From a virus: DNA of 32,917 nt. Below are positions 126-13,782 of this stretch, piece after piece. The notes beneath the pieces are model-generated. The model had not been told where the DNA came from. It did not search any database and saw only the letters and a program-made list of their open reading frames with translations. Position 1 is the first letter of the stretch, and each line of letters opens with the position of its first letter. The stretch spans positions 1 to 32,917 of IMG/VR virus record IMGVR_UViG_3300026549_000035; one strand, written 5' to 3'. The position numbers were made by a program, and so were the translations under genes.

Positions 126-276
126 TAGTTTTCGGGAAAATTTTTTCTCGATTGCGCCCGGGCCAAATCAAAACAAAAAGAGCTAAATGGCTAGCCTCGT
201 GAAAATTCGACCGCATCGCGGTCTGTGTCGGTCACCATTCAGCAGGTGACTTTTCACAAAAGTCTTTTAATGGACA

Positions 277-348
277 CTAATCGCAACCAGTGGCACTGGC
301 GCAAACTTTAGCAATCAATAAAAGGGCTTTTACTAATTCAAGAGTCAT
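277..348 (-). CDS. Possible 23-aa hydrophobic peptide (MTLELVKALLLIAKVCASATGCD), apparently translationally coupled downstream of the AbrB-like gene
   Basis: AGGAG 9 nt upstream of the ATG. TAG stop. Followed by a structured ~150 nt 3' region with hairpins GTCACC..GGTGAC and GACCGC..GCGGTC. Confidence 0.3.
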   Translation of the reverse strand: MTLELVKALLLIAKVCASATGCD

Positions 349-367
349 AACATTTAGCTCCTTTCAA

Positions 368-619
368 TTATTTAGTTTTACTTTCAATAAGTTGTATTAA
401 TTTTTCGAATCGCTCATCAACTTCAAGGTCATCTTGCCAGTCTTGCCGCAATTCGTTTAAAACAGGAATAGTATCATTTTGACGTTTGCGTAAAATCAAT
501 TCACCATTGTCTTTTGGAATGATTTCAATTTCATCGCCACCCATCCAACGCAAAGCGCGTCTTACATCTCTTGGAATAGCGATACGTCCAATATCATCAA
601 TCTTTTTAATTATTACCAT
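368..619 (-). CDS. AbrB/MazE/SpoVT-family swapped-hairpin DNA-binding protein (83 aa)
   Basis: N-terminus MVIIKKIDDIGRIAIPRDVRRAL matches the IDxLGRIVIPxxxR AbrB-N motif. RBS GGATGTG. TAA stop. Own promoter at 646-674. Confidence 0.8.
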   Translation of the reverse strand: MVIIKKIDDIGRIAIPRDVRRALRWMGGDEIEIIPKDNGELILRKRQNDTIPVLNELRQDWQDDLEVDERFEKLIQLIESKTK

Positions 620-645
620 TTTATCACATCCTTTATTATAATAAA

Positions 646-674
646 ATTATAACAAATTTTTTCAAAAAAGTCAA
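646..674 (-). promoter_or_regulatory. Sigma-A type promoter TTGACT-17-TATAAT for the AbrB-like gene
   Basis: Minus strand reads TTGACTtttttgaaaaaatttgtTATAAT, followed by the RBS and the ATG. Confidence 0.7.
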
Positions 675-684
675 AAAAATCGGT

Positions 685-722
685 AAAAAACCCTAAAAAA
701 TCGTTATTTTTAGGGTTTTTTC
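685..722. terminator. Intrinsic terminator hairpin AACCCTAAAAA..TTTTTAGGGTT flanked by A and T runs, possibly bidirectional
   Basis: Inverted repeat with a T-tract on both strands, directly after the stop codon of gene 723..1091. Confidence 0.7.
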
Positions 723-1091
723 TTACTTTTTAGGTGGTCTATGCTTAATTAATGTGATAGAATAGTCATTTGAGCCAACAATTAGCGAAATTTCACGCTC
801 TTTTTTGATAATTGATACATCAAAACCGTCTTTTTCACTCAAAAAATCAGCAATTTCTTCAATAATTTGTCTTTTTTCAAGGTCAGGTTTACGTTCTCTT
901 TTAGTGAAATTATACGCTGTTTGTTTGCGTTCAGCCTGTCTATACTTACGGGTGCTTTTTTCTTGCTCAGGAGTTAAGTCAAATTCTGTCTTTTTTCCTT
1001 TGTCAACATCTTCATCATAGGCAAGAATTTCTCTGGCTTCTGCTTCTGAGATATCTAATTTTTTCATTAAAGATTGAATTTTTTCATTCAT
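723..1091 (-). CDS. Hypothetical protein (122 aa), paralog A1 of gene 3049..3417; both end KLIKHRPPKK
   Basis: Start chosen at MNEK, 7 nt after GGGGA. Promoter at 1122-1150. Clear sequence similarity to the 3049..3417 product. Confidence 0.7.
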   Translation of the reverse strand: MNEKIQSLMKKLDISEAEAREILAYDEDVDKGKKTEFDLTPEQEKSTRKYRQAERKQTAYNFTKRERKPDLEKRQIIEEIADFLSEKDGFDVSIIKKEREISLIVGSNDYSITLIKHRPPKK

Positions 1092-1121
1092 AAGCATTTC
1101 CCCTTTTTATTTGATGTATTT

Positions 1122-1150
1122 ATTATAACACATTTTTATTTAAATGTCAA
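1122..1150 (-). promoter_or_regulatory. Sigma-A type promoter TTGACA-17-TATAAT with CGCCCGGGCG palindrome 10 bp upstream of the -35
   Basis: Minus strand reads cgcccgggcgaaaaaactaTTGACAtttaaataaaaatgtgtTATAAT. Confidence 0.7.
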
Positions 1151-1174
1151 TAGTTTTTTCGCCCGGGCGAATCG

Positions 1175-1209
1175 CCCCCCTAAGGGGGCTGAGGGGTTAA
1201 CCCTCAGCC
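1175..1209 (-). other. Tandem GC-rich hairpins (CCCCCCTAAGGGGG and GGCTGAGGGGTTAACCCTCAGCC) at the 3' end of gene 1197..1565
   Basis: The stop codon of the gene lies inside the second hairpin. A near-identical hairpin recurs at 11893-11915. Confidence 0.5.
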
Positions 1210-1565
1210 ACGATACGGAAGTAGGTTCTCCGCTTCTCGGAGTACTTCTCAACCTTGCCTGCTTCAATAAGCTGGCGCATGAGAGCGGAAACGTGCTGAT
1301 TACTGTCGCCTTCAAGCTCAGCGATAGCCTTAAGCAAATCGGAAACAGTGAATCCAGTGTCCGCATTATCAGCAAGGAAATCAACGATAACTTCTTTCAG
1401 TTCCTCGTTTTTAACCTGCTGAGCGGTCAGCTTCTTGGGAGAAGCATTTTTCTTGTCAAGCTGTTCGACCATCTTGGTCAGCTTAGCAATAACTTCAGCA
1501 GGAGCGTCAGTTAGATGGTCGATGGCGTAGGTCAGAGCCTTGCGATTAGTCATCTTGTCGTTCAT
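1197..1565 (-). CDS. Hypothetical winged-helix-like protein (122 aa), paralog B1 of gene 4127..4492
   Basis: Both paralogs share KLTKMVEQLDKKNASPKKLTAQQVKNEELKEVIVDFLADN. RBS AGGAT. Tandem promoters at ~1600-1650 and ~1745-1790 with a conserved TATTACAGTCAAGGG leader. Confidence 0.7.
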   Translation of the reverse strand: MNDKMTNRKALTYAIDHLTDAPAEVIAKLTKMVEQLDKKNASPKKLTAQQVKNEELKEVIVDFLADNADTGFTVSDLLKAIAELEGDSNQHVSALMRQLIEAGKVEKYSEKRRTYFRIVAEG

Positions 1566-1954
1566 AGTATCAAATCCTTTCTGGTTTATTGGGTTTTCCT
1601 TCCCTTACTGTAGTTTTATTATAGCACATTCAGCGCTGATTGTCAAGGGTTTTTTCAAACTTTTTTTATTTTTTATTTTGAACGCCTACTCGTCAGTAGT
1701 TCGGGCAAGGACTAAGTCGTGCTCGCTCTCCGTTCCCTTGACTGTAATACTATTATAACACATTTATAAAAAAATACAAGTGGTAAAATCTACAGAGTTC
1801 GTCTAAATTTTTAACACTTTTTCATGCAAAATGCCAGAACCCCCGGGCGCCATAGGCTTTGAAAGTTTTTCATTTTTTTCTATTATTATTATATAATATT
1901 TTTTTATAAAAATCAATTGGTTCCCCGCTCTTTTCAGAATGGGGAACCTCATGA

Positions 1955-2527
1955 TTAGGCAACAGCGGAAACACCGCTATCCAAATAACTTTTTACGATT
2001 TTGTTAAATGTCAGCGTAGGAATGTCAACACCGAAAAATCGGTCGTTTTTCTTGAAAGCGTCAGGGAATCTGTGAATAAAAGCGGCTCTTGTGACCGATT
2101 CTGCACCCTCGGCAGGATAAGCACCGCAGTCAATTACAGAACAAATATCGGCTGATTCAACAGGAATACCACGCTTTTTATAATACTTGATTTCTTCTTT
2201 CAGTCTTTGCTCAGGTAATCGAGTAGTTGTACCGACCTTTGAGCAAATCAGCTCGCCGTTACTGTCATAGAACTTGTATAAATACACAAGCTGTTTACCG
2301 CCCCTTAAAACCTTTTTAGCTTTCAGGGTAATGTGATAAAATGTCTTGCAGGCTTTTTCTAAAAGTCCAGCAAACTTTTTCACATAACGCTTAATCGTTG
2401 ATTCTGCGTAACCAGTCCATTTCTTGATTTCTTCGGGGGTAAATCCATGACTGTCAAGATAAACCACCTGTAAATGTTTCTTGTCTGTATCCTCAAAACT
2501 TTGGAACACCTCAATTTTCTTTGCCAT
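1955..2527 (-). CDS. Hypothetical protein (190 aa) with a possible N-terminal HTH
   Basis: Start at ATG (MAKKIEV), 10 nt after AAAGGA. The GTG chosen by the ORF caller lies upstream. Promoter TTGACAactggcacagaatgtgcTATAAT at ~2555-2585. Hairpin terminator GGTTCCCC..GGGGAACC at ~1925-1955. Confidence 0.65.
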   Translation of the reverse strand: MAKKIEVFQSFEDTDKKHLQVVYLDSHGFTPEEIKKWTGYAESTIKRYVKKFAGLLEKACKTFYHITLKAKKVLRGGKQLVYLYKFYDSNGELICSKVGTTTRLPEQRLKEEIKYYKKRGIPVESADICSVIDCGAYPAEGAESVTRAAFIHRFPDAFKKNDRFFGVDIPTLTFNKIVKSYLDSGVSAVA

Positions 2528-2589
2528 TTTAACCACGTCCTTTTCTTTAGTGTTTTAATTATAGCACATTCTGTGCCAGTTGTCAAGCG

Positions 2590-2763
2590 TTATCTGTCAA
2601 AAATTGCAATAATAATTGCACAAAGAATGACAATAGCCAGAGGAATCCAGAAGGGGGCAAGAACCCACCACCAAGACCAAGTAATTACGCCGACAAGCTT
2701 CAAGATGATAAAGACAATTCCAAGAACGTCACATACGCCTAAGCCTACAACTTTAGTGTCCAT
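2590..2763 (-). CDS. Small membrane protein (57 aa, two predicted TM segments; the sequence includes a WSWWW motif)
   Basis: Not in the ORF track because it is <60 aa. Promoter TTGACAttctacaacaagtatgcTATAAT and RBS GAAAGGAGAG precede the ATG. Confidence 0.5.
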   Translation of the reverse strand: MDTKVVGLGVCDVLGIVFIILKLVGVITWSWWWVLAPFWIPLAIVILCAIIIAIFDR

Positions 2764-2832
2764 CTTTTTCTCTCCTTTCTCTCTTGATTACAATGTTATT
2801 ATAGCATACTTGTTGTAGAATGTCAATAGTTA

Positions 2833-3036
2833 TTACAAAATTGTAACCGCGCCCGGGCGAAAAAAGGGCGGGGAACGCCCACTTGGAAAAGGCGTTCCCT
2901 CGTTAATAATAAGTGTGATTATTTTCGGTTGCGGGCGAGGAAGTTTAGGAGCTTCTTGCCTTTTCTCGAACTCCTCAACCTCAAGAATAAAAGAGTCAAA
3001 AAAATCCAGAAAATCAGAATAACTTGTGTAATACAT
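2833..3036 (-). CDS. Hypothetical protein (67 aa), translationally coupled to gene 3049..3417
   Basis: Strong RBS GGAGGtttagaATG. The C-terminal part of the ORF runs through a terminator-like hairpin, so its extent is uncertain. Confidence 0.4.
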   Translation of the reverse strand: MYYTSYSDFLDFFDSFILEVEEFEKRQEAPKLPRPQPKIITLIINEGTPFPSGRSPPFFRPGAVTIL

Positions 3037-3048
3037 TCTAAACCTCCA

Positions 3049-3417
3049 TTACTTTTTAGGCGGGCGATGTTTAATCAGCTTCACCGAATAGCTATCACCT
3101 TTGAAAGTGAAATGTAAATCAGTTTCATTTTTCAAGGGTTCTGTGATTGCGCCCATGCCTTCCAAAAGAACACGAATACAGTTAATAATTTCTTTCTTGA
3201 TTTTATCAACTTTTCGCTCTCTTTTTACAGGGGTGCGTTTTTTCGAGCCTACCTTAGAAGCAGATTTTATCGCTTTTTTCTGCTCTGCCGTTAAATCAGA
3301 CTGAGCTTCTTTTACCGACATTTTGTCGATTTCTTCATCTTCTTCAAGAAGTTGAATAGCTTCTTCTCTGGAACATTCAAGCGTTTTCATCAGCTTTTGG
3401 ATTCGTTCTTCATTCAT
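3049..3417 (-). CDS. Hypothetical protein (122 aa), paralog A2 of gene 723..1091
   Basis: Start MNEER after AGAGGTG. Promoter TTGACAttttaatcaaaacgtgtTATAAT at ~3445-3480. Confidence 0.7.
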   Translation of the reverse strand: MNEERIQKLMKTLECSREEAIQLLEEDEEIDKMSVKEAQSDLTAEQKKAIKSASKVGSKKRTPVKRERKVDKIKKEIINCIRVLLEGMGAITEPLKNETDLHFTFKGDSYSVKLIKHRPPKK

Positions 3418-3479
3418 TATTAGCACCTCTCTTTCAGTGTCTTTATTATAACACGTTTTGATTAAAATGTCAATACTTT

Positions 3480-3850
3480 TTTAACAAAAAAAAATCAAAA
3501 TGTGGAGCTTTCATTATGGGGGCGGATCTGTGGATGTTATGGTTACCCTCACCGCCCAATGCTATGTTTTTTGAGTTTTCCTCTCAAAACTCCTAGCTAA
3601 AAACATAGAAAAGACTGGAAAAAGCCACCCCGCTTTTTTTAGTTGTTTTTTAGGTAAAAACATAGAAATGGGAGGTTGAAAACTAAAAAACTGAGCACTT
3701 TCTTTAAATATTTTTTCTTCTTGAAAAATTTTTGCCGCACTCATAGCCGTATTCTAATAAGTCACCAACACATCCATTATTTATTACTCATAGGGTCTTG
3801 ATGTTGGGTATCCCTCGTATAGTCCTAAAGATGAGGTACCTATCTCCTTA
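3480..3850 (-). ncRNA. Candidate non-coding or leader transcript driven by a duplicated ~90-bp promoter cassette (TTGACT-17-TATACT) at ~3855-3935
   Basis: No ATG-initiated ORF with an RBS. The only ORF (3562..3744, 60 aa) is low-complexity with no SD. Internal direct repeats TAAAAACATAGAAA. Ends in a GGGCGG..CCGCCC hairpin plus a U9 tract. Confidence 0.35.
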
Positions 3851-4000
3851 GAACACTTATAGTATAACACATAAAAGGTAAAAAGTCAATAGTTTTTTGA
3901 AAATTTTTTTCGTTATTTTTTTTAACAGGCACCCGGGCGCAAAGCCTGCGGAAATCCGCAGGCTAAGCACAGAAAGGAGGACTCAAAAATGAGGAGTTAT

Positions 4001-4075
4001 TGGTGCGTATAGTGGGAGTCGAACCCACCTAAACACGATTAAAAGTCGTGTGCATAGCCGCTTTGCTACATACGC
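4001..4075 (-). tRNA. tRNA-Lys, anticodon UUU, with an encoded CCA
   Basis: Acceptor stem GCGTATG/TATACGC (six Watson-Crick pairs plus one G-U). D-loop contains GG. Anticodon stem CACGA/TCGTG with loop CTTTTAA. T-arm GTGGG-TTCGACT-CCCAC. Discriminator A then CCA. Co-transcribed downstream of gene 4127..4492. Confidence 0.85.
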
Positions 4076-4126
4076 ATGATAGGGGGTGGGGGGATTTCGC
4101 TCCCCCCACGGAGCGGACTGAGGGAA

Positions 4127-4492
4127 TTAACCCGCAATCTTGAAGTAAGTCCGACGCTTCTCGGAGTATTTCTCGACCTTGTTCGCTTCAACGAGCTGAC
4201 GCATGAGAGCGGAAACGTGCTGATTGCTGTCACCTTCAAGCTCTGTGACAGACTTGATAAGGTCAGTGACCGTGAAGCCCTCATTCTCGTTATCAGCGAG
4301 GAAATCAACAATGACCTCTTTCAGCTCTTCGTTCTTGACCTGCTGAGCGGTCAGCTTCTTGGGAGAAGCGTTCTTCTTCTCCAACTGCTCCACCATCTTC
4401 TGAAGCTTTGCGGTAACTTCGGAATTGCTGTCACCGATAGCGTCGATGGCAAAAAGCAGGGCGGTCTTGTTAGTCATCTTGGTATTACTCAT
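4127..4492 (-). CDS. Hypothetical winged-helix-like protein (121 aa), paralog B2 of gene 1197..1565
   Basis: High sequence identity to 1197..1565. Tandem promoters at ~4545-4580 and ~4715-4760. Confidence 0.7.
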   Translation of the reverse strand: MSNTKMTNKTALLFAIDAIGDSNSEVTAKLQKMVEQLEKKNASPKKLTAQQVKNEELKEVIVDFLADNENEGFTVTDLIKSVTELEGDSNQHVSALMRQLVEANKVEKYSEKRRTYFKIAG

Positions 4493-4834
4493 AGTATCAA
4501 ATCCTTTCTGGTTTATTGGGTTTTCCTTCCCTTACTGTAGTTTTATTATAACACACCTTGCGGTAAAAGTCAAGGGTTTTTTCAAAGTTTTTTGAAAAAA
4601 TTTCTTCAAGTGTTGCAACTGCAATTCGGCTGTGCCTGTCCATTCTCGTAACCCCGTTAGGGATTGGTCATCAAATCACATAGGTCTTGGCTTGCTTGCC
4701 CTTGCCCTTGACTGTAATATTATTATAGCACATTCTCAAAAAAATGCAATAGGCAAAATGCACAAATCGGTCTAAATTTTTAACACTTTTTTGTGCATTT
4801 TGCGGGTGGCGCCCGGGCGCCCAAGGGCAGGCTG

Positions 4835-5332
4835 TTAGCCCACCCATGAGTAAACCTTGACTTTGGGAGTAATAGTCTTTTTAACCTTTTGCCATGTACC
4901 ACCATGTTCACGCCAGTCATATTTCGGATTAGGAATTGTATAGTTATTCCCATCATCATCGTGAACAATCAGCTCACGAGGCGGTGCCTCAGGGTTATCT
5001 ACCCAGTCTTCAACTTCAATAGTGATAGGTTCTCCATCAATTATCTCAGTCTTGATAATACCTTTATCAGAGAGAATTTTCATAACTCTGCCAATAAAGC
5101 TCGACCAGCTCCGAGCTTCTTTAGTACGCCCATAGGAGGTGTAGTCAAGAGAGCTTGAAAACTTACGAATAGCGTGCTTAGAATACTCCTCTCCCATGAT
5201 AGCGATACCAATTTCTTTACAGGTCATAGGCTTTGTTGCAGAGCGCAGAATATCAAGGACGATTTCGGTATTTGAGATTGTTTTCTTAGACTTTCTTGCT
5301 CCTACAAAAATTTCTTCATAACTTAATGACAT
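4835..5332 (-). CDS. Hypothetical protein (165 aa)
   Basis: ORF with promoter TAGACA-17-TATAAT at ~5385-5430. Terminator-like GGGTGG..CCACCC hairpin enclosing GCGCCCGGGCGC at ~4800-4835. Confidence 0.65.
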   Translation of the reverse strand: MSLSYEEIFVGARKSKKTISNTEIVLDILRSATKPMTCKEIGIAIMGEEYSKHAIRKFSSSLDYTSYGRTKEARSWSSFIGRVMKILSDKGIIKTEIIDGEPITIEVEDWVDNPEAPPRELIVHDDDGNNYTIPNPKYDWREHGGTWQKVKKTITPKVKVYSWVG

Positions 5333-5511
5333 TTTAAAATCTCCTTTTATTTATTTGATGGGGCTTGGCTTCCCTTCCCTCATCTGACATACTTATTATA
5401 ACAGATAATTTTCATTTTGTCTATTGGCAAATTGTATAAATATGGGTCTAAATTTTTAATATTTTTATACAGATTGTTAAACATACTGACAAAGCCCGAA
5501 GGGGCTAAGCA

Positions 5512-5703
5512 TTATTTAGAACGCTTAGCCCTACAAGCTTTGCACATCAGCGGTGAAGTTGCAACCGCAACCAACACGCACATGATACAGCCCAAAATGC
5601 GGAAGAAATCAAACTCACCAAGAGTGAATCCAAAAACATACAGACCCGCAAAAAAGGCACAAAGATAAGAAATGACGAACTTTACAATGTTGAGAACTTT
5701 CAT
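5512..5703 (-). CDS. Small membrane protein (63 aa)
   Basis: Hydrophobic ORF. Promoter TTGTTG..TATAAT and RBS AAAGGGG at ~5705-5760. Hairpin terminator GGGCTAAGC..GCTTAGCCC at ~5480-5512. Confidence 0.55.
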   Translation of the reverse strand: MKVLNIVKFVISYLCAFFAGLYVFGFTLGEFDFFRILGCIMCVLVAVATSPLMCKACRAKRSK

Positions 5704-7014: not shown

Positions 7015-7016
7015 GA

Positions 7017-7848: not shown

Positions 7849-8250
7849 CTATTTTAACTTTTCCTCAAGCCATGCTAACATTTTTTTACTTTCATCACGC
7901 AAGCGGATTTTTTCAGCTCCGCCATTTTTTTCGCTCTCTCTGGTAACGTAACCAAAAGCATTTACAAAAGCGATATACTCAGCTTTTTCCATAACGTAGG
8001 CTGTGCCGTTTCTGGTAGCGTAAATGTAAAGGTCAGAAGCGTCAAGGTCAAGGTATCTTTCAAGGTCTGTGCCTTTGCAGATAGAAGCCTTTGCGCTTTT
8101 CACTTGGAAGTTAAGAACATCAGCCCCTTTGTCAAATCTCAGGTTATCAGCCTTTAGGATTTCACCTGTTAAATGAAATCTGATTGACTGCTCTGCGTTT
8201 TGTCCGTGATTGCGGTAGTTGTTAAGATAAGTGAAAGTAAATGCTCTCAT
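7849..8250 (-). CDS. Hypothetical protein (133 aa)
   Basis: Start MRAF after AAAGGA. Promoter TTGACAagCCCGGGCtgatgtgcTATAAT at ~8255-8310. Imperfect hairpin terminator at ~7775-7812. Confidence 0.65.
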   Translation of the reverse strand: MRAFTFTYLNNYRNHGQNAEQSIRFHLTGEILKADNLRFDKGADVLNFQVKSAKASICKGTDLERYLDLDASDLYIYATRNGTAYVMEKAEYIAFVNAFGYVTRESEKNGGAEKIRLRDESKKMLAWLEEKLK

Positions 8251-8319: not shown

Positions 8320-8481
8320 TCAAGAAAAAATATAATTTTTCTTGAAACTGTAAAAGGCTTGTTCAAACTGTAAAAGCTCCGACAGAGTGAAACGGCTTGC
8401 GAAATGCTCAGGCGTTTCATCAAACAGGTAATAGCCATTTTTTACCATTCTTTCCACGACATAAATTTTTGATTCTTTCAT
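8320..8481 (-). CDS. Small protein (53 aa; MKESKIYVVERMVKNGYYLFDETPEHF...)
   Basis: Below 60 aa, so absent from the ORF track. RBS GAGAGGAGAA. Extended -10 promoter (acaTGaTATAAT) paralogous to the promoter at 7285-7320. Confidence 0.45.
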   Translation of the reverse strand: MKESKIYVVERMVKNGYYLFDETPEHFASRFTLSELLQFEQAFYSFKKNYIFS

Positions 8482-8545
8482 TTTAGTTTTCTCCTCTCTC
8501 TTTACTATCTATATTATATCATGTTACGTGTCCTATAAACGGGAC

Positions 8546-8950
8546 TTAGAGAGCTACCGCTTCACCTTTTTCAGCTAAAGTGATTGCTTCATATCCAGCC
8601 TTTGTCCATTGGCGGGTATTCTTGGGGTCATCATCAACCAGAACGCCAACCTCACGGATAAAATCAACTTTGCGACCATAACCAACTATGCAGATAAAAT
8701 TTGCAAGTGCAAATTCGGGAATGTGCTTTGCAAGCCAATCAATTTTTCCCGCCTTGCCTGCTTCGTTGCGGGCTTTGGTCAGAATGTAAACCTTGACGCC
8801 TTCAGCGATAAGTCTGCGGACTGTTGAAACGTTCTCAGTGAATGGTTCAAGATTTGCCATAGCTTCACGGCTTGCGGCAGTGTTTTTGTCAGTAGCATAC
8901 GCTTTGTGGAAGTTGGCGAGAACGCCGTCCATGTCAAAGTAGTAAGTCAT
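8546..8950 (-). CDS. HAD-superfamily 5'(3')-deoxyribonucleotidase-like protein (134 aa)
   Basis: N-terminal motif YFDMDGVLANF (DxDGV, typical of NT5C-type nucleotidases). Start MTYYF after GGAGG. Promoter TTGACAtCCCGGGCtgtttggtgTATAAT. Confidence 0.8.
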   Translation of the reverse strand: MTYYFDMDGVLANFHKAYATDKNTAASREAMANLEPFTENVSTVRRLIAEGVKVYILTKARNEAGKAGKIDWLAKHIPEFALANFICIVGYGRKVDFIREVGVLVDDDPKNTRQWTKAGYEAITLAEKGEAVAL

Positions 8951-9093
8951 TTTTCGATCCTCCGTGTCTTTCATTGTCTTAATTATACACCAAACAGCCC
9001 GGGATGTCAAGCGTTTTTTGAAAAAAAATATTTTTTGTTAAAATGCACAAATTGGGAATATAGAATTTGTGCAACATTTAGCGCATTTTTCTC

Positions 9094-9122
9094 TTGACTT
9101 TTGGTGGGAGGTGTAGTATAAT
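9094..9122 (+). promoter_or_regulatory. Plus-strand sigma-A type promoter TTGACT-17-TATAAT driving a ~65-nt transcript antisense to the 3' end of gene 9181..9363
   Basis: TTGACTtttggtgggaggtgtagTATAAT. The transcript has hairpin GGGGCG..CGCCCC and terminates in the 10-bp stem ATAAGCGGAT..ATCCGCTTAT (9160-9184), shared with the convergent gene. Confidence 0.55.
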
Positions 9123-9180
9123 ATTTCGGGGCGCCACGCCCCTGATCGGTGACAAAAAAATAAGCGGATTTGCGATCCGC

Positions 9181-9363
9181 TTATCTGTGCCAGATTTTGA
9201 GGCTTGAAGCATACCGACCGAGGGGATACGTGCGAACCTCTTGTAGTTCAACATAAGAAACTTTGCCGACTTTTGAATTGAAGTAAGCAAGCGCCTCATC
9301 ATAGTTACGGAAAGCCTCATCTTCTCTAAAATTCCAAGTCACTACATAAAACATTTCTTTCAT
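9181..9363 (-). CDS. Small protein (60 aa), member of a 56-65 aa paralog family (with 12185..12355 and 13783..13980)
   Basis: Promoter TTGACAagCCCGGGCttttgatgTATAAT and RBS AAAGGAAAGAGG. Shares the YFN..V..ELK..IW pattern with 12185..12355. Confidence 0.6.
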   Translation of the reverse strand: MKEMFYVVTWNFREDEAFRNYDEALAYFNSKVGKVSYVELQEVRTYPLGRYASSLKIWHR

Positions 9364-9454
9364 TTTTCTTACCTCTTTCCTTTATCTTATGTATACATTA
9401 TACATCAAAAGCCCGGGCTTGTCAAGCCCTTTTATTGGACTTTGTAAAATTTTT

Positions 9455-9622
9455 TTATTTGCTCCAATCAGGGTTGAAAACCACAAAACCGTTGACATTT
9501 TTTGCGACTTCTTCTGCTTTGTCTGCGTTATCAAACGCACCCCAAAACCAGTCAGCACCGTCGCACTCTCTCGCTACGATGTAGGGAAAATCATCGGCGT
9601 AATCAGGCACATTCTTAATCAT
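9455..9622 (-). CDS. Small acidic protein (55 aa; MIKNVPDYADDFPYIVARECDGADWFWGAFDNADKAEEVAKNVNGFVVFNPDWSK)
   Basis: Missed by the ORF track. RBS AAGAGAGGAG. Promoter TTGACAaactcgatctcttggggTATACT, preceded by GGTTACAA..GTTACAA direct repeats. The overlapping plus-strand ORF 9389..9655 is an artefact. Confidence 0.5.
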   Translation of the reverse strand: MIKNVPDYADDFPYIVARECDGADWFWGAFDNADKAEEVAKNVNGFVVFNPDWSK

Positions 9623-9727
9623 TTTTCAAGCTCCTCTCTTAACTTTCTATACTAAGTATACCCCAAGAGATCGAGTTTGTCAAGCATTTTTTGAGATTGT
9701 AACTAATTTGTAACCTTTTGGATAATA

Positions 9728-9856
9728 AAAAAAATGAGGGCTTGCGCCCTCGGTGCTGACTTGCTCTCAGCTGGAACAGAGCTTTGTTTTAAGTGCGCCC
9801 ACCACTCGTAGTGTCGGCTGGTTTTTAGGTGTGCTCTGTTTCTCCCTTCACCCTAC
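9728..9856 (-). ncRNA. Candidate small RNA (~125 nt): consensus promoter, no AUG anywhere in the transcript, classic intrinsic terminator
   Basis: Promoter TTGACTtttataacataatcgtgTATAAT (-10 at 9863-9868). Terminator GAGGGCgcaaGCCCUC plus U8 at 9727-9752. Internal stem CAGAGC..GCUCUG. Confidence 0.5.
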
Positions 9857-9894
9857 AAGTAGATTATACACGATTATGTTATAAAAGTCAAGCA

Positions 9895-10095
9895 TTTTTT
9901 GAAATTGTAACTATTTTGTAACCTTTGCATACCCATGCATAATTATGCATACTTTCGGGATTTAATACTTTAGTGTGTTAAAGTGCATAATTATGCACTT
10001 TATTGTTGTAGCACTTTAACGCGCTAAAATCGGCGCGGGTCGATCGTAGGCGCGCCGCCGAAACAAAGTCCAATAAAATGGACTGAATAATTATG
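9895..10095. promoter_or_regulatory. Palindrome-rich regulatory region: ATGCATAATTATGCAT (perfect 16-bp), GTTAAAGTGCATAATTATGCACTTTA, GCACTTTAACG, TTGTAAC repeats, GC hairpin GGCGCG..GCGCGCC
   Basis: Read directly from the sequence. Shares TACTTTCGGGATTTA and the motif families with 7560-7790. Confidence 0.45.
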
Positions 10096-10117
10096 CAAAA
10101 AAAAATGCGGTCACCGC

Positions 10118-10375
10118 TCAGGGGAAAATCTGAGCGGTGATGTCAACGACAATCCAGCGAGAGCCGTCCTCAGAGAGGGAGCGTTCCCAGACCAAACCGC
10201 AAGGGAGAAAAATGCGGTTTCTGCGTTCCCAGCCTCGAACTGCCATGTCAATGAACAGCTCGAACATCTGGCTCTGAGTGAGACCTTCGAAAAGGCTTCT
10301 GACGAACCACATCTGACCATCGTCAGGAACAAGGCTCAGCAGAGTGCGGTAGTGGTTAAAATCTTTCTTAGTCAT
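10118..10375 (-). CDS. Hypothetical protein (85 aa)
   Basis: RBS AAAGGAGGAA. Promoter TTGACT-17-TATAAT at ~10400-10440. C-terminal codons and the TGA stop are encoded inside the terminator stem CACCGCTCAG..CTGAGCGGTG followed by a U9 tract. Confidence 0.6.
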   Translation of the reverse strand: MTKKDFNHYRTLLSLVPDDGQMWFVRSLFEGLTQSQMFELFIDMAVRGWERRNRIFLPCGLVWERSLSEDGSRWIVVDITAQIFP

Positions 10376-10528
10376 GTTAGTTCCTCCTTTGGGGGGGTAG
10401 CCCCTCTTTCATTGTCTTTATTATAGCACACTCGGGCAAAAAAGTCAATAGTTTTTTCAAAGAAAGTATTCGTCAAAATATACAAATCGGGAATCTTTTT
10501 TGACTGTGAAGTTTGTGCATTTTGCGAA

Positions 10529-10557
10529 TTGATTTTTGCGGCGGGCTGTGGTATAAT
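10529..10557 (+). promoter_or_regulatory. Plus-strand promoter TTGATT-17-TATAAT driving a short transcript antisense to the 3' end of gene 10603..10911
   Basis: The transcript begins AATTTCCGGC and ends at hairpin GGATTAGC..GCTAATCC (10600-10620). The same architecture recurs at 9094 and 12477. Confidence 0.5.
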
Positions 10558-10602
10558 AATTTCCGGCTCTGGCGCCCGGGCACGGTGACGAAAAGAAAAG
10601 GA

Positions 10603-10911
10603 TTAGCAATACGCTAATCCCATTGTTTTCCAATTCAAAATTGAAATTTGATTGCATTTTCTTCCAATTGTCAGAGCCTCTCTTTTAGTATTAACTCTGT
10701 GACTTTTATCAACATAGTAAATACCATTTGAAAACCATACGCCGCAGTTTCCATTATACGCTTTTACTGCGTTTATTGCTTCTCTTGGGCTTGTCGTTTC
10801 AACGCCTTCCGTTGCAACCTGCCAGCCTGTTTTGTAGGTTGTGGCTTTTCCCTTTTTTAAGGTTAAGCCCTCATTTTCTTTAAGTTTCAGAATTGAACGA
10901 ATGTTAATCAT
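10603..10911 (-). CDS. Hypothetical protein (102 aa)
   Basis: Start MINIRS after AGAGAGGAG. Promoter TTGACTtttcgCTCGGGCtgtgcTATAAT at ~10935-10980. Confidence 0.6.
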   Translation of the reverse strand: MINIRSILKLKENEGLTLKKGKATTYKTGWQVATEGVETTSPREAINAVKAYNGNCGVWFSNGIYYVDKSHRVNTKREALTIGRKCNQISILNWKTMGLAYC

Positions 10912-11002
10912 TTTCTTATCTCCTCTCTTTATTGTGTCTTTATTATAGCACAGCCCGAGCGAAAAGTCAAGTGTTTTTTCAAAAAAAATAAAGGGCGTAT
11001 TT

Positions 11003-11272
11003 TTACGCCCATTGTAATTTTCCATCGACTACATAGATAACACTCTCTGCGCCATCGTATTCATCGACATAGTGGTCGGTGCAATTTTCGGGAAGCTCAA
11101 CAACTTTTAACTCAGCGTGAGTTCCATTTACATCTTCCCCTGCTTCTATTGCTGAGATTAACTCAGCATTATAGCGGAGTTCTTCACTATCATGAGAATC
11201 AATTCCAAGGCGGTCTGCCCATTCCTTAGATACGCTAAATCCACCATAGCAAGCATTGACAATTAATTTCAT
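11003..11272 (-). CDS. Hypothetical acidic protein (89 aa)
   Basis: RBS AAGAGAGGAG. Promoter TTGACTtttggatgcgtctatgcTATAAT at ~11285-11335. Stop overlaps terminator GGGCGTA..TACGCCC plus a T-tract. Confidence 0.65.
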   Translation of the reverse strand: MKLIVNACYGGFSVSKEWADRLGIDSHDSEELRYNAELISAIEAGEDVNGTHAELKVVELPENCTDHYVDEYDGAESVIYVVDGKLQWA

Positions 11273-11397
11273 TTTTTTTTATCTCCTCTCTTTATTGTAT
11301 CTTTATTATAGCATAGACGCATCCAAAAGTCAATAGTTAAATTGCACAAAGATGTGATAAGAATTCTGTGCAGATTGACGAATCCGCCCGGGCGCAA

Positions 11398-11544
11398 TTA
11401 ATAAGGCAGATACGCCTTTTTGTGTTTGCGTTCTGCCTTTCTCAGCTTACCTTTTTTTGTATCTTCTACTTTTGGAGCGAAGCCCACAAAAGTCGGTCCT
11501 CTGTGTTTTCTTTTTTCCTCGGTTTTCTTTGTCCTGTGGCTCAT
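11398..11544 (-). CDS. Small highly basic protein (48 aa; MSHRTKKTEEKRKHRGPTFVGFAPKVEDTKKGKLRKAERKHKKAYLPY), likely nucleic-acid binding
   Basis: Start after GGGGAG. Promoter TTGACAtttgaggggttttgtgcTATAAT. The 79-aa ORF-track version starts upstream of the promoter and is rejected. Confidence 0.5.
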   Translation of the reverse strand: MSHRTKKTEEKRKHRGPTFVGFAPKVEDTKKGKLRKAERKHKKAYLPY

Positions 11545-11587
11545 TTTTATCTCCCCTTTCATTGTCTTTATTATAGCACAAAACCCC

Positions 11588-11881
11588 TCAAATGTCAAGA
11601 GGTTTTTCAGAAAAAAGTTCTTTTTCTTCAATTTCATAGTCTAAGCCATCAAGATGGAAGAAAAAAGCCTTCTTTTTTAATAAAATTTTAAGCCATTCTT
11701 TACCATATAAGTTTTTTAAACTCAACCATTTAGAATAAATTGAATAATAGCTTGTATAATTTTCACTTAATCCCTTGTTATCAATAAGCCATTGGATTGC
11801 GCTTGCATGGCTGTCACAAACCGCTACAACCTCAGTAGTATCATCAAAACCGTAAGTTTCTGTAATTGTAAATACTGTCAT
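11588..11881 (-). CDS. Hypothetical protein (97 aa), co-transcribed after gene 11912..12097
   Basis: RBS AAAAGGAG. Last codons L-D-I then stop are encoded by the next promoter's -35 (cTTGACAtttga). Confidence 0.6.
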   Translation of the reverse strand: MTVFTITETYGFDDTTEVVAVCDSHASAIQWLIDNKGLSENYTSYYSIYSKWLSLKNLYGKEWLKILLKKKAFFFHLDGLDYEIEEKELFSEKPLDI

Positions 11882-11911
11882 TTTTATCGCTCCTTTTGGA
11901 TAGCTGAGGGG

Positions 11912-12097
11912 TTAACTCTCAGCCCACCAGTCAGCAGTTTTCATCTTTGCGATTTCGCCCTCTAAGCGGTCAAGGCTCAGATTGTTGTCGGGATAGCTTT
12001 CGCATTTTCTTGCGAAGTCAATAGTTTCGGGAGCTTCATGTCCGAACATTCTGATTACTTCGGTCAACATTTCTTCTCTTGTTCTTCTTTCTGTCAT
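11912..12097 (-). CDS. Hypothetical protein (61 aa)
   Basis: Promoter TTGACAagcaagggtttttgtgtTATAAT and RBS AAGGAAAGGAAG. Stop inside hairpin GGCTGAGAGTTAACCCCTCAGC. Confidence 0.6.
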   Translation of the reverse strand: MTERRTREEMLTEVIRMFGHEAPETIDFARKCESYPDNNLSLDRLEGEIAKMKTADWWAES

Positions 12098-12184
12098 TTT
12101 GATAACTTCCTTTCCTTTTTTCTGTCTTTATTATAACACAAAAACCCTTGCTTGTCAAGTGTTTTTTAAACAAAATCTGGCGTT

Positions 12185-12355
12185 TTATTTACGCCAGATT
12201 TCAATGCTCTGTGAGTAGTAGCGGTGACCATTGTCATCAACTGCTTTCAGTTCGCAGTAGGTGAAATTTCTCTTTACTCTGTTAAAGTAAGCTCTCGCTT
12301 TTTCCTCAGTGTTAAATTCCTCATAGGTTTTATAAGCAGATACTACAAATGTCAT
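12185..12355 (-). CDS. Small protein (56 aa), paralog of gene 9181..9363
   Basis: Start MTFVV after AAGGAAAGAGAGG. Promoter TTGACTttaaagacttttcatgcTATAAT. The ORF-track N-terminal extension is rejected. Confidence 0.55.
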   Translation of the reverse strand: MTFVVSAYKTYEEFNTEEKARAYFNRVKRNFTYCELKAVDDNGHRYYSQSIEIWRK

Positions 12356-12476
12356 TTTGTTTTCCTCTCTTTCCTTTTTTCTGTCTTTATTATAGCATGA
12401 AAAGTCTTTAAAGTCAATAGGCAAAGTGCACAAATCGGGAGCGCCCGAGCGCATGAAAGTTTGTGCATTTTGCCTA

Positions 12477-12505
12477 TTGATTTTGTGTGGGGATTGTGCT
12501 ATAAT
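12477..12505 (+). promoter_or_regulatory. Plus-strand promoter TTGATT-17-TATAAT, divergent from the promoter of gene 12185..12355. The inverted repeat TGCACAAA..TTTGTGCA (12427-12467) lies between the two -35 elements
   Basis: Transcript ATTTCCGGCUACGCC... ends at hairpin GGGCTGA..TCAGCCC (12542-12559), which is also the terminator of the convergent gene 12553..12903. Confidence 0.5.
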
Positions 12506-12552
12506 ATTTCCGGCTACGCCGATCGTCCTCGAAAATTAAAAGGGCTGATTGC

Positions 12553-12903
12553 TCAGCCCCAAAGTGAATTAACTGCTATTGAAAGAGACCCTTCTCGAAC
12601 ACCAGTTTCACTGTAACCATAGTATTTGCTATAATCTGTTTGATTTTTTTCTCCTCTTGCTTTAATCTCTGCTTGGATTCTACGCCAACCAATTTCAAAG
12701 CAATAATCTATAAACCATTCAGAATATCTATATTTTTCTCTTCTTGCTTTACTATAGGTCATAACAGCAATTTGATCATTAGGGTATTCTCTTTTTAACT
12801 GTTGCTTTAATGCTTGTAATTCCTCAATGTTAGTGGAGTGTTGGATAATTTTACAACCATCGTGAGAAGGTTTTTCGTTTACTTTAATTACTGCATACTC
12901 CAT
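12553..12903 (-). CDS. Hypothetical protein (116 aa)
   Basis: Promoter TTGACAagCCCGGGCtaatatgcTATAAT. RBS AAAGAGAGAGG. Confidence 0.65.
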   Translation of the reverse strand: MEYAVIKVNEKPSHDGCKIIQHSTNIEELQALKQQLKREYPNDQIAVMTYSKARREKYRYSEWFIDYCFEIGWRRIQAEIKARGEKNQTDYSKYYGYSETGVREGSLSIAVNSLWG

Positions 12904-13009
12904 GATTATTTTCCTCTCTCTTTACTGTGTTTTTATTATAGCATATTAGCCCGGGCTTGTCAAGCGTTTTTTGAAAAAAAATAAAAAAAATAAGACTGAT
13001 TGCTCAGTC

Positions 13010-13324
13010 TTATAAATCTTCATCCATAGCATCTTCATAACACTTTGAACAATAGATTTTATTATTAATTAAATCTTCAAGGCTATCACCGAGTCTTAGT
13101 TCCAAATCTAAGGCGGAAACTGTCTCGCCGCAATCAGGACAAATAAAGATTTTTTGCTCTCTCAGGAAAGTATCTATTCTTTTACCTTCGGCGCTAAGTC
13201 TTGATTTTTCTCTCTGGCGAATTTCTCCACGATATTTATAAACCTTAACATACTTTTCGTGATACTTTGTGTAATAATTATTGGCATAGTCTAGTGCGAG
13301 TTCAGCAATTTCTTTTCTTGTCAT
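13010..13324 (-). CDS. Hypothetical zinc-ribbon protein (104 aa; CPDCGETV...CSKCYED)
   Basis: Start MTRKEIAEL after AAGGAAAGAGAGG. Promoter TTGACAttttgCTCGGGCtatgcTATAAT. Terminator AAGACTGA..TCAGTCTT with a T-run at ~12975-13010. Confidence 0.6.
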   Translation of the reverse strand: MTRKEIAELALDYANNYYTKYHEKYVKVYKYRGEIRQREKSRLSAEGKRIDTFLREQKIFICPDCGETVSALDLELRLGDSLEDLINNKIYCSKCYEDAMDEDL

Positions 13325-13440
13325 TTTTATTTTCCTCTCTTTCCTTTTTTCTGTATTTATTATAGCATAGCCCGAGCAAAATGTCAAGTGTTTTTTGAAA
13401 ATTTTTTTTGTTAATTTTTTAACAATCCATTTCCATAAAT

Positions 13441-13465
13441 AAAAACCGCCGTAGCGGTTTTTATT
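13441..13465 (-). terminator. Intrinsic terminator AAAACCGC-CGTA-GCGGTTTT. A second copy lies at 13764-13786
   Basis: Stem ACCGC/GCGGT with a CGTA loop flanked by A and T runs. Shares the CCGTAGCGG core with repeats in 14150-15310. Confidence 0.6.
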
Positions 13466-13489
13466 TAATTAATCACAGTACATCCAAGT

Positions 13490-13642
13490 TTCAAGTTCTT
13501 TCAAAGATACACCAAGATACTTTGACGCTGACTTCCAGCTTTCATCCAGTTTATCAAAAAAGATATCGTTCTGTTCATCTGTTAAACTATTGATTTTGGC
13601 TTCTACCTTATTGTATGTTTTTGTTAATTTTTTGACTGTCAT
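13490..13642 (-). CDS. Small protein (about 50 aa; MTVKKLTKTYNKVEAKINSLTDEQNDIFFDKLDESWKSASKYLGVSLKRT)
   Basis: RBS AAGAGAGGAG. Promoter TTGACAttttaCTCGGGCtatgtTATAAT. A +1 frame would extend it to 13468 across an A4/T5 run, so the 3' end is uncertain. Confidence 0.4.
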
Positions 13643-13782
13643 TTTTATTATCTCCTCTCTTTATCTTGATTACATTATAACATAGCCCGAGTAAAATGTC
13701 AAGTGTTTTTTTGAAAAAAATAAAAATTTTTTTTGTTAAATTTTTAACAATTTTTCCCAAAATTAAAACCGCCGTAGCGGTT

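Follow-up and report, generated by a model that had tools for sequence, protein, structure and literature searches.

CCCGGG palindromes between early gene cassettes of an SPbeta-like gut phage co-occur with a small protein of predicted nuclease fold

The early region of a TAG-recoded, SPbeta-like gut phage is studded with a short CCCGGG palindrome that, over about a hundred fragments of related phages, strictly co-occurs with one small phage protein, p133; the two are probably a new pair of protein and DNA site, with a likely role in regulating or reshuffling early genes. The DNA analysed here (32,917 nt; "the window") is the start of a genome of ~177 kb, whose host is a Gram-positive gut bacterium. 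Structural genes of the YonB, YonD and YomU type are common to this phage and the SPbeta group. The minus strand carries the early genes with their promoters, arranged in many small gene cassettes with a promoter each. The early region combines ~33 strong promoters in the window with hairpins and small ORFs that turn over fast between close relatives.

CCCGGG occurs 14 times in the window, exclusively between genes and within positions 157-12955. All fourteen positions listed in an earlier, sequence-only reading were confirmed, each to within 10 nt. The suspicion of a non-random excess also held, as dinucleotide-preserving shuffles of the window averaged 1.07 occurrences and never exceeded 5. 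The core octamer GCCCGGGC was found 11 times, compared to 0.12 expected. The consensus reads Y-G-CCCGGG-C-G and is palindromic over 8-12 bp; CCCGGG is constant in close relatives although the adjoining bases vary. The estimate of about 15 perfect palindromes was too high, as the full decamer CGCCCGGGCG is present only four times (1160, 2850, 4810 and 11385), while the five one-mismatch variants are real (CTCGGG on the plus strand at 10431; CCCGAG at 10954, 12444, 13371 and 13686). As proposed, the late half is devoid of CCCGGG: the last site of the window ends at 12955, and a near-identical contig (L007) shows none in the next ~6 kb. Likewise, no site falls within any gene backed by a promoter and a ribosome-binding site; we consider the mechanical ORFs overlapping several sites to be spurious. 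The sites and variants are as follows.

157-162: CCCGGG (GGCCCGGGCG on the minus strand), after a hairpin and T-run; starts 37 nt upstream of the -35 at 125
1162-1167: CCCGGG in a perfect CGCCCGGGCG, after two GC hairpins closing the 1197-1565 gene unit; starts 17 nt upstream of the -35 at 1150
1842-1847: CCCGGG in CGCCCGGGGG, ahead of a TGCA-box promoter region that has a paralog at 4812
2852-2857: CCCGGG in a perfect CGCCCGGGCG, after a hairpin and T6; starts 31 nt upstream of the -35 at 2826
3932-3937: CCCGGG, 5 nt past a hairpin without U-tract (AGCCTGCGGA..CCGCAGGCT); starts 48 nt upstream of the -35 at 3889
4812-4817: CCCGGG in a perfect CGCCCGGGCG; the cassette bearing a 165-aa gene is missing from relative L004, and the mosaic joint falls exactly here
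5804-5809: CCCGGG; starts 46 nt upstream of the -35 at 5763
6638-6643: CCCGGG, 2 nt past the hairpin CGCACTAAG..CTTAGTGCG; mosaic joint with L005, which has a different gene upstream
8299-8304: CCCGGG in TTGACAagCCCGGGctgatgtgcTATAAT, -35/-10 spacer of the p133 promoter
8998-9003: CCCGGG, promoter spacer of the NT5C-like nucleotidase gene 8950-8546
9412-9417: CCCGGG, promoter spacer of the 60-aa gene 9363-9181
10575-10580: CCCGGG in TGCCCGGGCG, after the terminator of gene 10911-10603 and just downstream of a plus-strand promoter (10529-10557); L003 homology breakpoint 5 nt away
11387-11392: CCCGGG in a perfect CGCCCGGGCG, after a hairpin; starts 59 nt upstream of the -35 at 11333
12950-12955: CCCGGG, promoter spacer of the 116-aa gene 12903-12553; homology with L021-L028 starts here
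10431-10436: variant, CCCGAG on the minus strand (one mismatch), promoter spacer
10954-10959: variant, GCTCGGGC on the minus strand (one mismatch), promoter spacer; 3 nt further from the -35 than the exact spacer sites
12444-12449: variant, CGCTCGGGCG, flanked by inverted TGCACAAA boxes; starts 32 nt upstream of the -35 at 12417
13371-13376: variant, GCTCGGGC, promoter spacer
13686-13691: variant, ACTCGGGC, promoter spacer

The TTGACA..TATAAT promoters described earlier are present when read on the minus strand. Four sites (8299, 8998, 9412 and 12950) indeed lie in a 17-nt -35/-10 spacer, but the remainder are not uniformly 10-45 bp from the -35: seven start 17-59 nt upstream of a strong -35, and three (1842, 4812 and 10575) are further from any strong promoter. 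In the minus-strand reading, 10 of the 14 sites are located behind the hairpin of one small gene unit and ahead of the next sigma-A promoter, in the order hairpin, motif, A/T-rich stretch, -35 and -10, and the same order recurs at unrelated junctions of distant relatives. Several of the adjoining hairpins lack a U-tract. Across 506 sites, a co-oriented strong promoter follows within 400 nt downstream in 81%, and spacer-located sites are a minority (~5% overall). Because sites keep a tight spacing to the upstream hairpin (mode 2-7 nt) and a broad one to the -35 (~30-80 nt), we regard the motif rather as marking the boundary from one gene cassette to the next. A role as promoter element is not its primary one, since ~19 of the ~33 strong early promoters of the window carry neither motif nor variant and motif-less relatives are equally rich in promoters. 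A direct effect of occupancy on RNA polymerase would be confined to the spacer sites.

The motif tracks p133 across related phages. Among 80 relatives fetched through an unrelated marker gene, only five are CCCGGG-rich (L029, L032, L040, L068 and L069; 6-11 sites per 10 kb and none in their late flank). These belong to two clades of the marker tree, and a tblastn search with E-values up to 10 found p133 homologs in exactly the same five. As an independent test, loci were picked solely for encoding a p133 homolog (34-94% identity), which yielded 15 CCCGGG sites versus 1.5 expected and 13 versus 1.3; 73 metagenome p133 loci contained 451 versus 40.7 expected. Exact GCCCGGGC occurs 400 times in 591 kb of p133 loci (1.9 expected) and 6 times in 534 kb of p133-less early regions, whereas its single-mismatch variants are enriched only 0.5-14-fold, with at most 40 copies of any one. 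In a protein-cluster comparison, p133 was present in 29 of 29 p133-positive and 0 of 49 negative loci; no other cluster tracked the motif, the next positive-only cluster being present in 9 of the 29. The co-occurrence extends down to 34% p133 identity and over several lineages. Moreover, different sites have an exact 8-mer in common but no homology in their flanks, and thus descent alone cannot maintain the motif. The core of the earlier proposal, a selected binding site for a phage-encoded factor, is strongly supported by related loci, but not its promoter role or its named binders. Those binders, the AbrB-like protein (368-619) and the wHTH paralogs (1197-1565 and 4127-4492), do not track the motif: 8-12 relatives poor in CCCGGG encode homologs of them, and the other CCCGGG-rich relatives encode none. 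Another co-occurring factor may reside elsewhere in the genome, as our view spans ~33 of ~177 kb.

p133 represents a hitherto undescribed family: its members are stand-alone proteins, ~130-160 aa long, whose predicted fold is PD-(D/E)XK, restriction-endonuclease-like, and they often occur in 2-3 paralogs per genome. The small, methyl-directed enzyme NhoI is among its best structural matches and I-Ssp6803I is the third-best, while no similarity was found to known CCCGGG enzymes or to Pfam restriction-enzyme families. D44 and K51 are the only invariant residues and match the Asp and Lys expected in a nuclease active site; E20 and Q49 are kept among closer homologs. The p133 promoter of the window holds the motif in its spacer, as do those of the close relatives L003-L005; L109, L114 and L029 show this arrangement independently, and other p133 copies carry one-mismatch versions at their own promoter.

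7849-8250, minus strand: p133 gene, 133-aa early protein with stop codon TAG; candidate motif-recognising protein
8284-8312, minus strand: p133 promoter, consensus sigma-A-type with 12/12 hexamer matches and an extended -10; motif within the spacer

From this correlation between p133 and the motif we infer recognition, catalysis and two downstream consequences, a reading to which we assign about an even chance: the palindromes would be p133 targets at cassette borders, through which p133 would regulate itself (sites in spacers) and breaks would stimulate cassette exchange (sites at borders). A p133 dimer would recognise the 8-10-bp palindrome. At spacers, its occupancy would block RNA polymerase, so that p133 would control its own expression and dampen a small number of very strong early promoters. 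At borders, p133 may nick or cleave the DNA, as the invariant Asp/Lys pair suggests, and the resulting ends could stimulate recombination, so that co-infecting colinear relatives would swap cassettes exactly at the motif. Homology starts or stops 0-8 nt from the motif in at least seven pairs of relatives. HSP ends fall within 6 nt of it 3.7-7 times as often as at random positions (2.5-3 times for -35 hexamers), and ~85-90% of homology breakpoints are located away from it; a conserved island amid unrelated spacers would draw crossovers regardless of function. Inverted cassettes, which blind cutting and joining at a palindrome would be expected to generate, are essentially absent. A self-targeting nuclease would also need protection or restraint, which counts against a cleaving p133. 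Within long ORFs the motif is about as frequent as chance predicts (9 observed, 7.7 expected) and thus shows no sign of self-avoidance. We found no methyltransferase in the window, nor near p133 in 28 of 29 long loci; in L183, two C5-methyltransferase genes adjoin p133.

A purely transcriptional role is possible, though we regard it as rather unlikely. Here, a dimeric regulator (p133 as a DNA-binding protein only, or another phage or host factor) would repress at spacers and insulate or shut off tandem strong early promoters elsewhere, with neither cleavage nor recombination. The palindromic 8-12-bp consensus, the spacer position in four promoters of the window and recurrently in p133's own, the co-oriented promoters downstream of most sites and the lack of avoidance in coding DNA all agree with an operator, for which SPBRE, the repeated operator bound by MrpR in SPbeta, sets a precedent in this phage group (PMC10516654). 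However, a broad -35 distance alongside a tight hairpin distance is unlike a fixed-position activator or repressor site, and the motif is absent from over half of the strong early promoters. The preference for the exact octamer over every one-mismatch variant is restriction-like in its sharpness, and only nuclease-type residues of p133 are invariant. Judging from published RNA polymerase footprints, a roadblock 2-7 nt past a hairpin would also be expected to stall the enzyme before the hairpin is complete. It is far less probable that the motif is an RNA element, i.e., part of a terminator stem or another structure of early transcripts. It does adjoin hairpins, several of them without a U-tract, but folds of 14/14 junctions put a strong hairpin upstream and leave the motif unpaired or weakly and inconsistently paired. 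A gapless 8-bp palindrome cannot form a hairpin alone, and the motif is also found within promoter spacers; being symmetric, it is more likely to be read as double-stranded DNA.

We likewise consider it improbable that the motif is a passive part of mobile promoter/terminator cassettes that spread by homologous or microhomology recombination, as in T4-type phages, with p133 as a hitch-hiking gene of unrelated function. The crowded early layout resembles theirs (PMC2839356, PMC4122927), cassette orientation is retained, and some rearrangements use promoter/5'UTR homology instead of the motif (e.g., L022 versus window positions 13318-13368). Yet the exact 8-mer amid unrelated flanks, the constancy of CCCGGG beside varying bases, the p133-less relatives that share the promoter/hairpin layout without such a motif, and the co-occurrence at low p133 identity in several lineages all argue against it. 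Similarly doubtful is a restriction-modification role, in which p133 would be a CCCGGG-specific or methyl-dependent endonuclease directed at host or competitor-phage DNA, the sites of the p133-encoding phage itself being protected by cytosine methylation or reading it out as epigenetic switches. The predicted fold and sharp specificity, the methyl-directed NhoI among the structural matches, the methyltransferase genes of L183 and the multispecific cytosine methyltransferases of SPbeta-group phages (PMC8270828) fit such a role; it leaves unexplained the ~200-fold site enrichment and the precise placement at cassette borders, and is at odds with the scarcity of methyltransferase genes and with the lack of similarity between p133 and known CCCGGG enzymes or any Pfam restriction-enzyme family.

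Proposed as a p133 target at cassette borders, the motif resembles several known systems in part. Small or monomeric PD-(D/E)XK enzymes (HhaI, HinP1I, MspI and NhoI) share the predicted core with p133, which carries a D..(Q/S)xK motif resembling the D..QxK of HinP1I and is small like NhoI and PvuII. The type IIP enzymes SmaI, XmaI/Cfr9I and SrfI recognise the same or an overlapping sequence (CCCGGG or GCCCGGGC) with sharp specificity. In contrast to these enzymes, to none of which it shows sequence similarity, p133 is an early phage gene without an adjacent methyltransferase, often has paralogs, and its own genome is enriched, not depleted, in the site. Free-standing homing endonucleases (T4 Seg/Mob; the PD-(D/E)XK enzyme I-Ssp6803I) are likewise small stand-alone nuclease genes with their own promoter and several paralogs per genome, associated with mosaic joints between related phages. 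However, their targets are 14-40 bp long, usually unique and missing from the carrier genome, whereas the putative p133 target is short, palindromic and present in many copies in its carrier. The PeSL (promoter-early stem-loop) elements are regulatory cassettes of T4-type phages (Arbiol et al. 2010, PMC2839356; Comeau et al. 2014, PMC4122927). There too, a hyperplastic early region holds small non-essential ORFs, each between a strong sigma-70-type promoter and a stem-loop, and indel or replacement joints between close relatives fall in these intergenic elements. PeSLs, however, work through homology over the whole promoter/terminator repeat and without a dedicated protein, whereas here, in an SPbeta-like phage of a Gram-positive gut host, a strictly conserved 8-10-bp GC palindrome lies between hairpin and promoter in unrelated surroundings and is tied to an encoded protein of predicted nuclease fold. 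SPBRE, an element repeated in Bacillus phage SPbeta and bound by the master repressor MrpR (YopR) (PMC10516654), belongs to the same broad phage group. In both cases, a short element occupies about ten early intergenic or promoter regions and is recognised, putatively so for p133, by one phage protein with a fold from a DNA-cutting enzyme family. The folds differ, that of MrpR coming from the tyrosine recombinases, and p133 has kept a nuclease-like Asp/Lys pair. SPBRE is a 15-bp lysogeny operator at promoters, compared to an 8-10-bp GC palindrome that mostly marks borders behind terminators; the inverted TGCACAAA boxes of the window would be a closer analogue of SPBRE than CCCGGG is.

Strand analysis (GC skew, ORFs and promoter scans) divides the window into an early region, transcribed from the minus strand between 1 and ~16000, and a remainder transcribed from the plus strand. 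The 16-kb early region carries ~33 near-consensus sigma-A-type promoters on the minus strand, many with 12/12 hexamer matches and an extended -10, usually with one small gene apiece and with hairpins 3' of the genes. By exact-protein look-ups, the window corresponds to the beginning of an ENA contig of 177,555 bp (identity 99.99-100%, offset 37 nt), whose late genes match the SPbeta-specific Pfam families YonB, YonD_N, YonG_N, YomU, YomV and YomW. In the late half, long ORFs appear solely when TAG is read as sense: 76 in-frame TAGs fall within 14 ORFs, and the summed long-ORF length of the late genes (16031-32917, plus strand) rises from 1403 to 4814 aa. The 26 early-gene stops (1-16000, minus strand) are standard, with 23 TAA, 2 TGA and 1 TAG, and no suppressor tRNA was found in the window. 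The phage is TAG-recoded and SPbeta-like, and a near-identity DNA search found no DNA-level relative among cultured phages.

The window (32,917 bp) contains 14 copies of the hexamer CCCGGG, every one of them lying between 157 and 12955. The sequence-only reading had considered such an enrichment unlikely to be due to chance, and the shuffled-sequence null bears this out: dinucleotide-preserving shuffles of the window contained 1.07 copies on average and never more than five. The octamer GCCCGGGC was observed 11 times vs 0.12 expected. The full decamer CGCCCGGGCG is found at just four sites, so that the ~15 perfect copies claimed earlier were too many; the site coordinates were right within 10 nt. 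Confinement to the early half was likewise confirmed, as CCCGGG is absent from the other 20 kb of the window and from ~6 kb beyond it in the near-identical contig. Five one-mismatch variants (CTCGGG or CCCGAG) are located at 10431, 10954, 12444, 13371 and 13686.

Four of the sites (8299, 8998, 9412 and 12950) reside within a 17-nt promoter spacer, straight after the -35 hexamer, in an arrangement like TTGACAagCCCGGGc...TATAAT. In the remaining ten, the preceding gene unit closes with a GC-rich hairpin, the site adjoins this hairpin on its 3' side, and the A/T-rich/-35 region of the next promoter follows. The distance to the next strong -35 hexamer downstream is 17-240 nt; seven sites begin 17-59 nt before it and three are further off. 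Four of the five variants are also found in spacers, with the register moved by 3-4 nt, and ~19 of the ~33 strong promoters in the window carry neither motif nor variant. The proximity to hairpins would be compatible with an RNA element acting in the transcript, for instance as a terminator stem. However, folding of all 14 junctions placed a stable hairpin upstream and left the motif unpaired or inconsistently paired, which argues against a terminator stem and renders an RNA element less likely.

With the first gene of the late strand (16031-16807) serving as neutral marker, we retrieved 80 viral contigs with 54-79% identity, each with at most 10 kb of early region. Only five of these (L029, L032, L040, L068 and L069) are rich in CCCGGG; their early flank has 6-11 sites and their late flank is free of them. 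Their layout is that of the window, i.e., stop, hairpin, yGCCCGGGCg, A/T-rich stretch, -35 and -10, and the flanks are unrelated. No counterpart motif was found in the other 75 relatives, despite equally many strong promoters. GCGCGC, CCGCGG and CATATG, considered as replacement palindromes in the CCCGGG-poor relatives, turned out to be coding or hairpin-stem sequence and not junction motifs. When all early proteins of the window were profiled against the 80 contigs, one stood out: p133, a 133-aa early protein (gene 8250..7849, minus strand), has homologs in each of the five CCCGGG-rich loci, and the other 75 yielded none, even at E = 10. The p133-positive loci form two separate clades in the marker tree. 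The AbrB-like and wHTH proteins, proposed earlier as binders, were dropped since their phylogenetic profile is opposite to that of the motif. Among viral contigs, the exact spacer-type site CTTGACAAGCCCGGGCT had a sole match, a GC-rich chance hit in L001. In the p133-less relatives L092, L094 and L100, CCTGG (ACCTGGCG) is frequent within or close to the spacers of early promoters, and the hairpin stems 3' of genes are built from pairs of GCGCGC; this clade may possess a separate motif system.

For an independent test, loci were selected solely by the presence of a p133 homolog. An NCBI MAG contig binned as Acutalibacteraceae contained 15 sites in 17 kb vs 1.5 expected, and an ENA contig 13 sites vs 1.3 expected, while smaller p133 contigs, including rabbit-gut MAG contigs, again displayed the order hairpin, motif, promoter. 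JGI metagenomes, scanned with the family alignment, yielded 73 p133 loci (34-94% identity, 488 kb in total) with 451 CCCGGG vs 40.7 expected, and each locus reaching into the early region was enriched. The weakly enriched loci L172, L174 and L187 use CCCGGG once their early region begins, and relatives have 13-22 sites per 20 kb. Pooling all p133 loci gave 400 exact GCCCGGGC in 591 kb, with 1.9 expected (~200-fold enrichment), as compared to 6 in 534 kb of p133-less early regions, with 1.15 expected. One-mismatch variants were enriched only 0.5-14x, the four central and sub-terminal positions being least tolerant to change, and 511 distinct sites delivered the consensus g-Y-G-CCCGGG-C-G-c. p133 was present in 29 of 29 neighbourhoods, the next positive-only protein cluster in 9 of 29, and no other protein cluster in the p133-locus neighbourhoods tracks the motif.

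The position of 506 distinct sites was then inspected. A strong co-oriented promoter follows within 400 nt downstream at 81% of them; the distance from site to -35 is broad, mostly 30-80 nt, and 5.5% are placed inside a spacer. A perfect upstream hairpin, present at 46% of the sites, ends at a tight distance from the site, with a mode of 2-7 nt. Long ORFs contain 9 motifs vs 7.7 expected, i.e., chance level, and no avoidance of the site in coding DNA was found. Judging from the tight hairpin distance, the broad -35 distance and the chance-level occurrence in ORFs, the motif is a border mark between transcription units and not a promoter element of fixed position.

Close relatives of the window (92-97% identical short contigs from other samples) retain CCCGGG and vary in the adjacent spacer bases. 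One of them, L004, lacks the cassette of a 165-aa gene, the right edge of which is exactly at CCCGGG 4812, and in L005 the gene upstream of CCCGGG 6638 is another one. The divergence of L003 sets in 5 nt from CCCGGG 10575, and the related loci L021-L028 split from the window at the promoter holding CCCGGG 12950. Homology that is present on one side of the motif and missing on the other was seen in at least seven pairs of related loci, the switch occurring 0-8 nt from CCCGGG. Across a set of 291 distinct HSP ends, the share with a motif within 6 nt was 10.8% for left ends and 5.6% for right ends vs 1.5% for random positions; for -35 hexamers, the values are 6.1% and 4.9% vs 2.0%. Most breakpoints lie away from the motif, and some rearrangements run through promoter homology. 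Inverted cassettes, as expected of an orientation-blind cut-and-paste process, were essentially not found. Two paralogous early gene pairs (723-1097/3049-3426 and 1197-1565/4127-4492, the second with 77% DNA identity over 300 nt) stem from the duplication of a two-gene block at a distance of ~2.9 kb; the edges of the two copies bear CCCGGG (1162/1842 and 3932/4812). Taken together, our analysis reveals a sharp palindrome at early-cassette borders, which is restricted to p133-encoding phages of several lineages and occurs preferentially at mosaic joints.

A profile search of 1.84 billion representative proteins showed that the p133 family comprises 281 clusters, nearly all stand-alone proteins of ~130-160 aa. 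p133 itself has no match in Pfam, PHROG, NCBIfam or PDB sequences, ten remote members have none in Pfam, and a protein search found no match in cultured phages. Foldseek against PDB and viral structures gave nothing informative save one uncharacterised homolog. Only D44 and K51 are invariant among 53 members with 25-58% identity. They belong to a D-x(5-9)-[Q/S]-[I/V]-K motif in a predicted beta-hairpin and, as judged from alignment and structure prediction, would correspond to the pattern expected of a PD-(D/E)XK active site; the motif resembles the D..QxK motif of HinP1I. A spacer site is present in the promoter of p133 itself, both in the window with its close relatives L003-L005 and, as independent cases, in L109, L114 and L029; other copies have one-mismatch versions of the site there. 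Many genomes encode 2-3 p133 paralogs, and a further site is often located directly 3' of the gene. The TAG stop of p133 (7849-7851) is the sole one among the early genes of the window; readthrough would add 53 codons, and the ENA gene call has 186 aa. A recoding switch at this stop was rejected, because TAG ends only 11 of 88 homologs and is thus not a family trait. A motif scan of ORFs of at least 180 aa detected no methyltransferase in the window and C5-methyltransferases in only one of the p133 loci, L183. There, two tandem C5-cytosine methyltransferase genes (2655-5011) are found immediately upstream of the p133 homolog, the lone methyltransferase instance near p133 in ~90 loci.

The early region holds further elements in addition to the palindrome:

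Further elements of the early region of the window
1-90, extended poly-T tract (minus strand, poly-A), immediately downstream of the last early promoter (125..97)
3846-3940 and 6552-6646, ~95-nt repeat, each copy with one of the two TTGACT..TATACT modules
3861-3889 and 6567-6595, minus strand, 88%-identical promoter modules (TTGACT..TATACT), then a conserved hairpin-forming leader
4001-4075, minus strand, tRNA-Lys(UUU) gene amid early cassettes (ARAGORN; Rfam, 58.6 bits)
9094-9122, 10529-10557 and 12477-12505, plus strand, three near-consensus promoters, each facing a bidirectional hairpin 30-60 nt away
4742-4803, 9027-9070, 10462-10530, 11326-11354, 12410-12470, 14033-14061 and 14762-14811, GCAAAATGCACAAA / TTTGTGCATTTTGC boxes

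The boxes constitute a second repeat family, in which inverted pairs that flank or overlap promoters are common; they resemble operators and may be the counterpart of the SPBRE/MrpR sites in SPbeta. In other p133 phages, box families of their own stand directly 3' of CCCGGG (e.g., TTTGAG-N6-CTCAAA in L069 and ATTGTCAGACAAT in L172). The three plus-strand promoters may be the source of short transcripts that converge with minus-strand genes, or are antisense to them, at their 3' ends. Downstream of 6567, ~350 nt are devoid of a protein gene and had no match in Rfam; this stretch may be a non-coding RNA. The poly-T tract, with which both window and contig begin, is an artefact of the assembly end or else a terminus of the genome.

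The co-occurrence across genomes suggests that p133 probably recognises the palindrome. We envision that a p133 dimer would recognise the site, that its occupancy at spacer sites would confer autoregulation, and that nicking or cleavage at border sites would stimulate cassette exchange between colinear co-infecting genomes; for this mechanism as a whole, we consider the balance to be even. A further-reaching reading, less likely than not yet realistic, is that p133 and GCCCGGGC make up a self-contained system of a new kind, in which a nuclease drives the exchange of cassettes. A restriction-like phage endonuclease would then cut or nick its own genome at sites bracketing accessory early cassettes, host-takeover and anti-defence genes would be swapped between co-infecting phages at defined joints, and the target site in the promoter of the nuclease would make the process self-limited; in function, such a system would be an analogue of integron cassettes that runs on a nuclease. 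Foremost among the alternatives is a role as operator or insulator only, in which p133 or another factor would bind the site without any exchange of cassettes. The spacer sites are consistent with this role, and the mosaic joints at the motif and the putative active site with exchange.

If p133 indeed recognises the palindrome, one 133-aa protein and one 8-bp site would represent a new and experimentally simple pair, spread across a large group of uncultivated, stop-codon-recoded gut phages. This link would explain how banks of tiny early genes, which likely serve host takeover and anti-defence, are set apart from each other, regulated and exchanged, and might provide a very small sequence-specific nuclease or DNA binder of SrfI/SmaI-like specificity. 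In genomes of these phages, the density of GCCCGGGC also serves as a practical marker from which the early region and its cassette borders can be predicted.

Literature searches turned up no description of CCCGGG/GCCCGGGC in phage intergenic regions or of the p133 family. In sequence specificity, enzymes of the SmaI, XmaI and SrfI type come closest, and a restriction-modification or epigenetic logic would be in line with a putative nuclease. In contrast to type II restriction-modification systems, however, p133 matches no known restriction-enzyme family in sequence, no adjacent methyltransferase gene accompanies it in the scanned loci except L183, and the carrier genome is enriched for the site instead of being depleted or neutral, which leaves this explanation less likely. 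Homing endonucleases differ in that their target is long, near-unique and absent from the carrier, whereas the present one has 8-10 bp and 14 copies in the window. Unlike an intrinsic terminator, the motif is not a GC-rich stem ahead of a U-tract in the 14 junction folds. Within the same phage group, the closest system is SPBRE/MrpR of SPbeta (PMC10516654). SPBRE is a repressor operator of early promoters; here, 4 of 14 sites (~5% overall) are in promoter spacers. The predicted fold of p133 differs from the tyrosine-recombinase fold of MrpR/YopR, as does the placement of the sites from that of SPBRE, and no candidate for such a repressor gene emerged among the window ORFs inspected. In function, the closest known system is PeSL of T4-type phages (PMC2839356, PMC4122927), with which the early region shares a strong early promoter and a stem-loop around small ORFs in a plastic region, as well as joints at the motif or promoter (in L003, L004, L005, L021-L028 and other pairs), most breakpoints lying elsewhere. 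PeSLs offer whole promoter/terminator homology without a dedicated protein, whereas here the flanks are unrelated and the motif depends on the presence of p133, and passive boundaries of this kind appear less likely. We regard the motif as an element that recurs in phage early regions and has a border or regulatory role.
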